The notes under the pieces are model-generated. The model had not been told where the DNA came from and did not search any database. It was given only the letters and a program-made list of their open reading frames with translations. A stretch of 64,000 bases of DNA from Minisyncoccota bacterium (GTDB lineage: Bacteria; Patescibacteriota; Minisyncoccia; Phycocordibacterales; Phycocordibacteraceae): contig JBAYHD010000004.1 of the NCBI GenBank assembly GCA_041666305.1, positions 3,946-67,945 on the forward strand, read 5' to 3'. A program made the position numbers and the translations under genes. Shown piece by piece: positions 36,230-39,984 of this stretch (positions are counted from its first letter, which is position 1; each line of letters starts with the position of its first letter).

Positions 36230-36922
36230 TTATTTTTTTCTGAGAAGAAACCACATTTGCCTTGTTTTCTTATCACGCTCGACCGTTTTCAGTTCCTCTC
36301 GGTCTAGATTTACGAGAGTGAATACTTGCTCTATTTTTTCTATATCGAAAAATGGATACACCGCCTGTGACATATCCTGAAAATTTCTATAGGTTGACAC
36401 ATATCTGTTTTGCAAAAATTCAGAATATCCATCAAAAGTGAAAGTATCAAGATACGAAGTCGGGACCTTCATGATCAAGACCCCTTCGGGATTCAGGAGT
36501 TTGTGGCACTCATCCAGATAGGTGGTGAACTTGTCGTCAGTAAGGTACTGGACCAGGCCGATTGATACTATGGTGTCATATTTTTTGTCGCCATATTCGC
36601 TCCACATCTCATCCGTCCCGCATGCTTTGGCGTGTATATTTTCAATGTGTTCCTCCGCGATTTTCTTATTCAAAATCTTTATATTGTTTGATGCAAAATC
36701 AAAACAATCAAATTGTATCTTTGGATGCAGTTTCGATAGTTCTATGCAGTGCCTTCCGGTGCCACACCCGGTGTCTAACAGAGCACCCTCGCGCATATGG
36801 ACATGTACCCACGCCACTTCGATGAGATCGCCTTTTAAAGACAGCGCCTCGCCATACCGCCATGGATCATGGTCGGTAAGTTTGTCAGCCCTCTCATTAA
36901 ATATTTGTTTTAAGTCAGTCAT
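36230..36922 (-). CDS. Class I SAM-dependent methyltransferase
   Basis: LLDTGCGTGRHCIEL, TIVSIGLVQYLTDD, PEGVLIMKVP. Confidence 0.75.
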   Translation of the reverse strand: MTDLKQIFNERADKLTDHDPWRYGEALSLKGDLIEVAWVHVHMREGALLDTGCGTGRHCIELSKLHPKIQFDCFDFASNNIKILNKKIAEEHIENIHAKACGTDEMWSEYGDKKYDTIVSIGLVQYLTDDKFTTYLDECHKLLNPEGVLIMKVPTSYLDTFTFDGYSEFLQNRYVSTYRNFQDMSQAVYPFFDIEKIEQVFTLVNLDREELKTVERDKKTRQMWFLLRKK

Positions 36923-36924
36923 GG

Positions 36925-38190
36925 TTATCCCAAGAAGGTGAACTGGTCCTGCTGATGAGGCAAATATTGCAAGGTGACCCCTTCTTTGTCTTCCTTCACT
37001 TTGGTATTTGCAAAAAACAGATGCTTGAAATCGGTCCGCTCCCCACTGCGCAACCCCGGCACCGGCAAGACCCGCACACCCAGAGGCTTTTTCAGAACGA
37101 TGGAGGTCGACAGCACATCCATAATCAGTCCGACTACTGCCGTATCCTTTACTGCGCCGGAGAGGGGGACCATATCAACCCCACAACCGCAGGTCGTAGA
37201 CAGGAGCTTCAGAAAATTCAAGTCAAATGCCCCTTCTTCATATCGCTTGCTCAAATAGGTATCCTCTAAAACTGAATACATGATCCCGTTAAATCCGGTT
37301 GTTTTTATTTTTGACTCTTTCACTATGAATTTCAAGATATTCGTCAGATAGGTATTTATGAAGTGTGTGCCATTGGACCCAAATTCAAAAACAGATTCTC
37401 CACGAGAGCGGCCGATCTGTCCTATTTCTTCAATAAGAGAAACAATGCTCTGATCCTCTAGCGGGTATGGATACGGAGCCAGCGATATATCCATACCCCC
37501 GTATGCGACTCCGGAATCTTTTTCGAACACGAGGCATGCATCCTGTATCTTTTGTAATTCGGATACAAGAGAGCTGATCAGGAGCTCCCGGAGAGAGTCC
37601 AGGTCCAAGCGATTATTATTTTTAACCAGCTCGGTAAGATACCCTACCATTTCCACCCCGACGATAAACTCGGCATCGCGTTCCGCACACGCAAACGGAA
37701 AGAAGGGGGATTTGATTTTGCCTGAGGACACCCCGACCCTAAAATTATCTATGGGATTCTGCGTATTTTTGATAATAAAATCGGCAACCTTTGTTATCGC
37801 TTTTATATGCAATTTCCCCTCGTTGACGGGAACAAAATTTATAAATATGTTGTCCTTGAGCTTGCTCGCGTATGCAGCCAGAGCCAAGGAATCCGCATAT
37901 GCGTGGCCTGAGACATCAAAGGGAAGGCCGATGCCCCAAAAATTATATTTTTCCGCCAATCCGACATAGTTCGAAATTAACTGCTCTGTTTTTTTGCTGT
38001 CGCCGGGGCCGATCAAGTCAGCGAGTATTCGGTACGTTCGCAGTGAATAACCACTTTTTTCGAAGCTGGCCAGGTTAGTGGTAAATTTTTTCAGCAGGTT
38101 CTCGTCATTGGTCGAAAGAAAACTTTGTAAGGTGATGGTCCTGATTTTTATATTCATGGGTAGAGAAGAGAATCGAGTGAAATATTGCAA
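36925..38190 (-). CDS. Hypothetical protein (about 410 aa; likely start 38157 overlapping the upstream stop as ATGA) in a low-GC islet
   Basis: Long ORF, AT-rich codon usage unlike the flanks, no recognisable catalytic motif. Should be compared with DUF711/UPF0210 models. Confidence 0.4.
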   Translation of the reverse strand: MQYFTRFSSLPMNIKIRTITLQSFLSTNDENLLKKFTTNLASFEKSGYSLRTYRILADLIGPGDSKKTEQLISNYVGLAEKYNFWGIGLPFDVSGHAYADSLALAAYASKLKDNIFINFVPVNEGKLHIKAITKVADFIIKNTQNPIDNFRVGVSSGKIKSPFFPFACAERDAEFIVGVEMVGYLTELVKNNNRLDLDSLRELLISSLVSELQKIQDACLVFEKDSGVAYGGMDISLAPYPYPLEDQSIVSLIEEIGQIGRSRGESVFEFGSNGTHFINTYLTNILKFIVKESKIKTTGFNGIMYSVLEDTYLSKRYEEGAFDLNFLKLLSTTCGCGVDMVPLSGAVKDTAVVGLIMDVLSTSIVLKKPLGVRVLPVPGLRSGERTDFKHLFFANTKVKEDKEGVTLQYLPHQQDQFTFLG

Positions 38191-39260
38191 TCTGTTATTT
38201 CTACAGGAAACTTGTGTTTTACCGTCTTATAAGGATAGATATCATCTTGATCAACTCTGTTTCTGATTGATTCGACACTTACTTCGTAGTTTTTTCTTAA
38301 CGAGAAGAATTCTACATCAGAATAATCAAAAACGATCACGGGAACCTTCTTTAGTCCTAATTCTTTTGAGACTTCCATTCTATGCTGCCCGTCCATAACC
38401 AGTCCGTTCGGGTCTACGCAAATCGGCCTCGTCCATATCTTTTCATCAAGGATCTTCTTTTTTAGCCACGCAACTCTTTTTTTAGAAAAAGATTCTATAT
38501 GTTTCAACTTAGAAGTATCGAAGTAAATCGTTGCGCCGATGTTTTTTAACATAGATTCATATTCCGACTGTGTGTTGAACGTATACCTCTTTCCTGATAC
38601 TATTTTGCATGTTAAGTGGAATTTTTCCTTATCGAATAGAGGCTCAAAATAATAAAAGTCCAATCCTCCTTTAGCCAAAGAAGACGCCTCCGCGACAAAT
38701 GTCGATACATCATCGCTGGAAATCCAAAGCGCGCCAGTCATATCAAAATACTGATCATCAATGGGCCCATTTCTCTTTCCAATGATAAAATCTTCGAAAA
38801 GATTATTTTTCACTCTAACGATCCCATTAGATTTATTCTGGTCAGCTTGGCCACCCAGAAACATAACGGAGTCCTTGCTTAAAGAGGCCCCAATCTCACG
38901 GAAAGCAAGGTCATCGTATACGCAATCACCCTCCAAGATCAAAACTCCGTCTTTTGCACCCTTGGCTCCAAGAACGGCAGACCAGATGTTCTTATCACTT
39001 GCAAATTTGTCGTTGACTACATATGAGATCCCGTAGCCTGCCGTATGGTTCTCTATTTGCTCTCGGTTATATCCCACAACGACTTTAATTTTTGCATCTG
39101 GAATGTATCGATTGACTTGACCTATCGCTCTTGAAATAACCGATTGGTTATCAACCGCAGAAAGACATTTGGGTTCTTTGGAATTGAACCTGGTACCCAT
39201 GCCTGCGGCGAGTATCACTACGGTCTTCATATTAGAATCTTGCGAACAAGGCAACGACAC
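38154..39260 (-). CDS. Fusion: LicC-like sugar-phosphate nucleotidyltransferase (N-terminal) plus ParB/Srx-like domain (C-terminal); likely start 39230 (MKTVVILAAG)
   Basis: N-terminal VVILAAGMGTRF...PKCL (NTP_transferase/LicC signature). C-terminal PICVDPNGLVMDGQHRMEVSKELGLKKVPVIVFDY matches the ParB N-terminal/Srx DGxHR core. Confidence 0.65.
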   Translation of the reverse strand: MSLPCSQDSNMKTVVILAAGMGTRFNSKEPKCLSAVDNQSVISRAIGQVNRYIPDAKIKVVVGYNREQIENHTAGYGISYVVNDKFASDKNIWSAVLGAKGAKDGVLILEGDCVYDDLAFREIGASLSKDSVMFLGGQADQNKSNGIVRVKNNLFEDFIIGKRNGPIDDQYFDMTGALWISSDDVSTFVAEASSLAKGGLDFYYFEPLFDKEKFHLTCKIVSGKRYTFNTQSEYESMLKNIGATIYFDTSKLKHIESFSKKRVAWLKKKILDEKIWTRPICVDPNGLVMDGQHRMEVSKELGLKKVPVIVFDYSDVEFFSLRKNYEVSVESIRNRVDQDDIYPYKTVKHKFPVEITDCNISLDSLLYP

Positions 39261-39984
39261 GAAGAAGCATCAGGGCAAATGGCCCGGTGCGGGACTTTGA
39301 TGTAACATACTTGTGATGGTTTTCATCGCGGATGGGTGTTCTCCAGTCGCCGTAGTACCACTCCATATATCGCTCCGGTGCGGCAAATGTCCTATACTGC
39401 TCACCGCGCAATGTAACACTGCTTTCGCCGTGCATAAAGTTATCGGGATAATATGACCACTTTCGGTACCGCTTGTCGCCCATCTTAAAAAATCCTACTA
39501 CCTCAAATATTGACCCGTGCTTTTCTGTCCGTATTCTGAAATCTATCTTGCTTTGTTTATACGCTTTTATCTGATAGCCGGCTTTGACAAAAGCTTCTAT
39601 AAGTTGGGCCTGTTTTGGATACACATCCTCTACTCGCACATCAATATCAACATCACCGTCCCACGCGATAAAATCACCGTCCCTCACAATACCAAGGAGG
39701 GTACCCCCCGCTAAATAATACGGAATGGACAATGTATCAAGAAACGCGCAGACCTCTTTTAAATCTTTGGCACGCAGGGCTAACTCCTCTTCAGTCCTCG
39801 TGCGCATAGACTCTCGTATTTCCCGCTCGGAACGCTCAAAAACTATGCGCGATGGCACAAAAAAAACGACCACTTTCTGTATGATTTTATTGAGAAAATA
39901 ACGCATCGTATGGAGGTTATTATAAGCTGTAACTGCTTTTCTCGCTCCTAGGTTGCTCTGGCCGATGCCTGTGTAGTGGCACAC
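39232..39984 (-). CDS. LicD-family phospho-alcohol (phosphocholine/ribitol-phosphate-type) transferase; likely start ~39906
   Basis: YYLAGGTLLGIVRDGDFIAWDGDVDIDV matches the LicD/fukutin nucleotidyltransferase-fold motif. Confidence 0.72.
   Translation of the reverse strand: MCHYTGIGQSNLGARKAVTAYNNLHTMRYFLNKIIQKVVVFFVPSRIVFERSEREIRESMRTRTEEELALRAKDLKEVCAFLDTLSIPYYLAGGTLLGIVRDGDFIAWDGDVDIDVRVEDVYPKQAQLIEAFVKAGYQIKAYKQSKIDFRIRTEKHGSIFEVVGFFKMGDKRYRKWSYYPDNFMHGESSVTLRGEQYRTFAAPERYMEWYYGDWRTPIRDENHHKYVTSKSRTGPFALMLLRVVALFARF

Follow-up and report, generated by a model that had tools for sequence, protein, structure and literature searches.

In Clostridioides difficile and Pseudomonas aeruginosa, FtaABCD (cd0241-cd0244) and PA1088-PA1091, respectively, carry out a post-glycosylation modification with phospho-(N-methyl)threonine via CDP-threonine (PMC10714395; bioRxiv 10.64898/2026.02.12.704994; bioRxiv 10.1101/2024.09.23.614423). 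This FtaBCD/PA1088-91 pathway, with FtaB (Q18CY2) and FtaD (Q18CY0) among its proteins, is experimentally supported, and a complex of FtaA with FtaB has been predicted. The Lic-1 system (LicA kinase, LicC cytidylyltransferase, LicD transferase), the LicCA-type fusions and the Kennedy pathway follow a comparable order in which a kinase and a cytidylyltransferase precede the LicD-type transfer of a phospho-head group. The Campylobacter jejuni O-methyl phosphoramidate pathway uses a glutamine kinase (Cj1418) and a phosphoglutamine cytidylyltransferase (Cj1416). Free L-serine is phosphorylated, with ADP or ATP, by SerK (Thermococcus kodakarensis TK0378; PDB 5x0b) and SbnI (Staphylococcus; PDB 5ujd), two proteins of about 242-256 aa in which the ParB/Srx fold is completed by an extra C-terminal segment and which serve cysteine or siderophore pathways.

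We analysed a stretch of 64,000 nucleotides, hereafter the window, in which a LicC-like nucleotidyltransferase (NTase) is fused to a ParB/Srx-fold domain within a set of glycan-biosynthesis genes (Table 1). Among known systems, it comes closest in pathway logic to FtaABCD/PA1088-91 and their CDP-threonine route.

Table 1. Genes, domains and motifs of the locus, with positions in the window.
Feature	Position	Strand	Basis
LicD-family phosphotransferase, upstream of the fusion	39232..39984	-	Pfam LicD PF04991, 45.5 bits, cutoff 22.6
Fusion gene (LicC-like + ParB/Srx-fold domain)	38154..39230	-	ATG start, 358 aa
LicC-like nucleotidyl(cytidylyl)transferase domain, aa 11-228	38577..39230	-	LAAGMGTRF + PKCL signature
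Mini-SerK domain, aa 229-368, ParB/Srx fold, free-serine-kinase subfamily	38157..38576	-	
Glu256 in KLKHIE, aligned with SerK Glu30; putative catalytic base	38493..38495	-	Alignment, invariance
DGQHR motif, equivalent to SerK DGHHR, at the ParB Box II position	38379..38393	-	Alignment
YPYKTVKH motif, aligned with the SerK C-terminal segment YSPKTTRH	38214..38237	-	Alignment
DUF711/UPF0210 gene	36925..38157	-	Pfam DUF711, E 3.9e-43
Class I SAM-dependent methyltransferase	36230..36922	-	Pfam Methyltransf_25, E 1.8e-14
TagF-like (Glyphos_transf) CDP-alcohol phosphotransferase, 626 aa	34322..36202	-	PF04464, E 2.5e-6, 27.2 bits, cutoff 22.1

Domain architecture of the fusion protein

The fusion is contained in one uninterrupted ORF of the minus strand (38154..39260) coding for 368 aa from a GTG at 39260, and residues are numbered here on this ORF. 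The true start is likely the ATG at 39230 (MKTVVIL...), since it lies 1 base past the TAA of the upstream LicD gene and yields 358 aa, which is the length of a database protein (P0001) 100% identical to the fusion protein. A first-pass annotation had described a nucleotidyltransferase joined to a ParB/Srx domain and proposed a database search for the same fusion. Both were borne out: the single intact ORF carries a LicC-like domain followed by a 140-aa ParB/Srx-fold domain, at least 158 homologues span the domain junction with a query coverage of 96-97%, and the fused form was found at 35 independent genomic loci. The predicted full-length structure (pLDDT 94.1, pTM 0.77) is confident in the linker too. 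An assembly artefact was ruled out by these junction-spanning homologues, the fused loci and the confident linker of the model.

In the N-terminal domain, residues 14-115 are matched by Pfam NTP_transf_3 (E = 1.6e-9, 38.5 bits for a curated cutoff of 27). With this score, the GxGxR...K signature and its closest structures, the domain belongs to the LicC-like family. These structures are small phospho-alcohol cytidylyltransferases, namely LicC of Lic-1 (phosphocholine), the nearest relative, and PntC (aminoethylphosphonate). CTP is the probable nucleotide, given the best structural matches and the CDP-dependent transferases encoded nearby.

The Pfam scan was less straightforward for the other half of the protein, where ParB_N (PF02195) matches residues 257-318 below threshold (E = 0.035, 14.6 bits versus 26.3); at the family level, 23 of the 56 members match it at E<=0.01, the best at 2.4e-7. 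These family matches, the core fold and the structural neighbours are in agreement with the ParB/Srx assignment made at first, and the C-terminal domain belongs to this superfamily. Its nearest relatives in structure comparison are SerK and SbnI, whereas ParB, Noc and Spo0J are much farther. The structural alignment reaches 125-130 residues for SerK and SbnI only (about 80 for sulfiredoxin and the nucleases), and the resemblance covers the whole domain, C-terminal segment included. The profile E-values are 2.4e-12 for SerK, 5.7e-9 for SbnI and 7e-6 to 0.2 for ParB/Noc/Spo0J, with values near 5e-3 for Noc/Spo0J. We refer to this 140-aa domain as mini-SerK. SerK residues ~121-200 (of 242) have no counterpart in it and the NCBIfam equivalog scores are far under the cutoffs (34.7 versus 380 bits for SerK, 27.1 versus 350 for SbnI), so that neither orthology nor serine specificity can be assumed. 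DUF1015 "SerBK" has been proposed as a remote relative of SerK and SbnI.

Active-site residues are conserved between mini-SerK and the two serine kinases, which share the Glu30 equivalent, DG(H/Q)HR and K-T-x-(R/K)-H. Glu256, the putative base, does not vary among 35 fused and 36 stand-alone homologues, and the corresponding SerK Glu30 is mutated to Q or A in PDB entries 5x0j and 5x0e (5x0e, like 5x0k, is a ternary complex of SerK). We take Glu30 to be catalytic in SerK, in keeping with the residues mutated in the PDB sequences. The segment LVMDGQHRMEVSKELGLKKVPVIVFDY, quoted in the first-pass annotation for its DGxHR motif, is indeed present in the protein; every homologue (71/71) keeps D290, G291, H293 and R294, and the family consensus is DG(Q/H)HR. 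In YPYKTVKH, little or no variation is seen at Y, P, K, T and K over the same fused and stand-alone homologues; this motif is a family signature and probably belongs to the substrate or phosphate site.

The gene cassette and its known counterparts

In the window, LicD comes first, then the fusion, DUF711, the methyltransferase and TagF-like. The junctions around the fusion are tight, with TAA-n-ATG upstream and ATGA downstream, where the DUF711 ATG overlaps the fusion TGA and the two genes are translationally coupled. The upstream LicD protein gives its best NCBIfam match with the Mf1 cholinephosphotransferase (E = 3.5e-13), and LicD also precedes the fusion at locus L009.

The composition of the cassette was counted over 76 related loci. 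In about half of them (~40), the NTase and a 125-137-aa kinase-like protein are encoded by adjacent separate genes in the same order, which makes the fused protein a Rosetta-stone case. The fusion extends to a third NTase in DPANN archaea, and Pantoea dispersa has a trio of an NTase, a 129-aa kinase-like protein and a second NTase. DUF711 is present in 67/76 loci, at no more than 750 nt downstream in 63, and class I methyltransferase homologues and Asp/Glu-type racemases in 49/76 and 33-42/76, respectively. A TagF-like (33), CDP-OH_P_transf (13) or LicD (12) gene is located within 7 kb in 57/76 loci; all three families use CDP-alcohol donors. No other kinase family is recurrent in the cassette over the 76 loci, and neither an APH/choline-kinase nor a HAD/PSP family was found among the Pfam-scanned window genes or the families recurrent across these loci. 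The Pfam scans returned polysaccharide, LPS or lipid genes and no flagellin.

The cassette is spread over many bacterial phyla, CPR bacteria, and DPANN and methanogenic archaea, and its cultured carriers include Pantoea dispersa, P. wallisii, Cedecea, Pseudomonas mangrovi, Castellaniella denitrificans and Roseovarius litoreus. The enterobacterial cassette DNA gave no match in the E. coli genomes searched, and known O-antigen chemistry could therefore not be borrowed. DUF711/UPF0210 is a large family with a solved structure, grouped in ECOD with the RNR/PFL ten-stranded barrels but lacking the glycyl-radical site; the cassette DUF711 profile matches only 2ha9 in the PDB, and our search for functional literature on DUF711 found none.

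The same logic may operate here as in the Fta pathway, which begins with the phosphorylation of a hydroxy amino acid, continues with the formation of a CDP-amino acid by a LicC-like NTase and the modification of this conjugate by a small class I SAM methyltransferase, and ends with the transfer of the phospho-amino acid to a sugar by a TagF-like enzyme. The Fta-type NTase, small methyltransferase and TagF-like protein belong to the same Pfam families as those of the window and of the related loci (49/76 for the methyltransferase, 33/76 for TagF-like), a likeness at the level of the Pfam family. PA1091 is a fusion of a GT and a phosphotransferase, to be compared with the GT25+TagF-like protein encoded at the Pantoea locus; the latter shows a marginal pairwise similarity to the TagF-like protein of the window (E = 0.017), the two being members of a common family and not orthologues. 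The phosphorylating protein and the NTase, a predicted complex in Fta, are fused here, but the phosphorylating module is HAD/ThrH-like in Fta (FtaA) and a ParB/Srx-fold mini-SerK in our locus. Furthermore, Fta contains neither DUF711 nor a racemase, both found in the present cassette, and ParB and DUF711 are not mentioned in the supplement of the Fta preprint. Finally, the Fta loci are flagellin-linked whereas the loci described here are polysaccharide, LPS or lipid clusters, also in non-flagellated CPR bacteria and archaea.

The remaining systems are more distant. SerK and SbnI serve cysteine or siderophore pathways, whereas mini-SerK is fused to or placed beside an NTase in glycan clusters. 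In Lic-1, LicA has a protein-kinase-like fold that differs from the kinase module found here; a LicD gene adjoins the fusion in the window, no choline transporter was seen, and DUF711, the methyltransferase and the racemase are additional. In C. jejuni, an amino acid is likewise phosphorylated then cytidylylated, and later tailoring and methylation give a capsule substituent; the kinase and hydrolase families are unrelated to those found here, and CDP-glutamine is hydrolysed to phosphoramidate instead of acting as a phospho-amino-acid donor. CDP-2-glycerol synthesis (Gtp1-3) was dropped as a comparison, the paper giving no fold information for Gtp3.

A proposed route to a CDP-activated head group

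We propose, with a probability of roughly 0.6, that the fusion is a bifunctional kinase/cytidylyltransferase producing a CDP-X which is tailored and then serves to place phospho-X on a surface glycan. The mini-SerK domain would move a nucleotide phosphate onto the hydroxyl of a small molecule X, most likely a free hydroxy amino acid (serine, threonine) or a close derivative, as suggested by the homology with SerK/SbnI and by the content of the cassette. The N-terminal LicC-like domain would convert the phospho-compound and CTP into CDP-X and pyrophosphate. In the order that we favour, CDP-X would then be tailored by the co-transcribed DUF711 enzyme and SAM methyltransferase, the methylation possibly taking place on the amino group of the CDP-conjugate by analogy with FtaC, and the adjacent LicD and/or TagF-like enzyme would transfer phospho-X to the cell-surface glycan of the surrounding operon. 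The proposal is supported by the SerK/SbnI-like character and conserved active-site residues of the C-terminal domain, the cytidylyltransferase-like N-terminal domain, the tight gene junctions, the Rosetta-stone pairing, the neighbouring CDP-alcohol transferases (LicD and TagF-like in the window) and the absence of any other recurrent kinase, and a coupled activation step, already offered as the sense of the fusion, is a sensible reading. An amino-acid substrate is hinted at by the action of SerK and SbnI on L-serine, the Asp/Glu-type racemases and the Fta-like gene set. On the opposite side, SerK does not accept threonine or homoserine, and LicD, CDP-OH_P_transf and the LicC/PntC resemblance suit choline- or ethanolamine-type head groups just as well. 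The methyltransferase itself gives a weak generic class I match with phosphoethanolamine N-methyltransferase (E = 6.8e-4), which speaks neither for nor against ethanolamine-type N-methylation.

The near-obligate DUF711, without counterpart in the Fta pathway, implies something more than a plain, common metabolite as X or CDP-X. More tentatively, and at somewhat less than even odds, the cassette (mini-SerK, LicC-like NTase, DUF711, with or without N-methyltransferase and racemase) could be an unrecognised pathway to an amino-acid-derived CDP head group for glycans or lipids, DUF711 transforming the phospho- or CDP-amino acid. A concrete version would be serine to phosphoserine, CDP-serine, CDP-ethanolamine after decarboxylation by DUF711, and CDP-choline after methylation.

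The same kinase and cytidylyltransferase mechanism could also act on choline, ethanolamine, glycerol or another simple alcohol, and the fusion would then be an analogue of LicA plus LicC producing CDP-choline or CDP-ethanolamine for LicD. This is compatible with the LicD gene directly upstream and its cholinephosphotransferase match, with the LicC and PntC neighbours of the N-terminal domain, with the CDP-OH_P_transf genes at 13 loci and with the labels "choline kinase" or "CTP:ph..." given to several members by the JGI pipelines. These labels, however, probably stem from the LicC-like half. LicA-type choline kinases share no relationship with the kinase module, whose characterised relatives phosphorylate free serine, racemase genes for amino acids accompany 33-42/76 loci, and a scavenged alcohol would need neither DUF711 nor the methyltransferase; we consider a simple alcohol unlikely.

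The first-pass annotation had seen in the C-terminal domain a CTP-binding and perhaps CTP-hydrolysing switch of ParB type, and such a domain might sense CTP to regulate the NTase, or hold CTP, without phosphorylating a substrate. The fold is common to the ParB CTPases and this domain, the fused partner probably uses CTP, and an archaeal SerK-like protein was reported as a CTP binder in a DRaCALA screen (PMC12704722). Nevertheless, the check for a GERRxRA-like arginine patch turned out negative: at the Box II position, GERRxR, the patch by which ParB-type switches bind the CTP phosphates, was not found in VMDGQHRMEVSK, which has a single Arg, and DGQHRMEVSK stands in place of the patch. The protein ends 140 aa past the NTase with no further Pfam domain, hence neither HTH nor dimerisation domain, and the locus offers no ParA/parS context, the neighbours being glycan-biosynthesis genes. 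These are the features that set apart the CTP-dependent DNA clamps ParB, Noc and KorB, and all are lacking here. Moreover, ParB, Noc and Spo0J are much farther than SerK and SbnI, the equivalent of the SerK catalytic Glu is invariant, the frequent occurrence of the domain as a separate 125-137-aa operon protein suits an enzyme more than a regulator acting within one chain, and a switch would leave the pathway without a step producing the phospho-substrate. A CTP switch is thus very improbable, and on these sequence and structure comparisons the C-terminal domain, nearest to the enzyme branch of the superfamily, is most likely a free-serine-kinase-type enzyme.

Still less probable is another activity of this functionally diverse superfamily (nuclease, ATPase, sulfiredoxin-like sulfinate phosphorylation or the reverse hydrolysis of phospho-X) with an indirect link to the NTase: the racemase of the Pantoea locus scores 180.7 bits for a cysteate racemase cutoff of 190 and could hint at sulfur-containing amino acids, but only SerK and SbnI match structurally over the full length, the Cys of the sulfiredoxin motif GCHR is missing from DGQHR, and the surroundings are consistently those of glycan or lipid head-group biosynthesis.

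Significance for surface decoration and for the ParB/Srx and DUF711 families

The statement of the first-pass annotation that the architecture is not a described family still holds: no description of an NTase joined to a ParB/Srx domain was found in the literature searched, including the PNAS 2025 survey of ParB-CTPase-fold fusions, where no nucleotidyltransferase partner occurs in the text or supplements examined. Beyond that annotation, the halves are often separate adjacent genes, DUF711 appears as a near-obligate partner and the Fta pathway as a functional analogue.

The detection of CDP-activated amino acids among cellular metabolites dates from as late as 2026 and concerns the flagellin Fta pathway alone, HILIC-MS having been used for CDP-Thr. 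Another cassette of this logic, much more widespread and with a different kinase, would suggest that decoration of surface glycans or lipids with phospho-amino acids, or groups derived from them, is common. If the route from serine to CDP-choline were true, it would provide a choline-independent access to phosphocholine and phosphoethanolamine decoration. The ParB/Srx fold would gain a compact enzymatic branch of 140 aa, which corrects the temptation to see a CTP switch in each ParB-like domain. DUF711/UPF0210 receives its first strong functional association, by which this family becomes testable. Among the carriers are uncultured CPR bacteria and DPANN archaea, about whose envelopes next to nothing is known, and the cultured carriers make experiments feasible.

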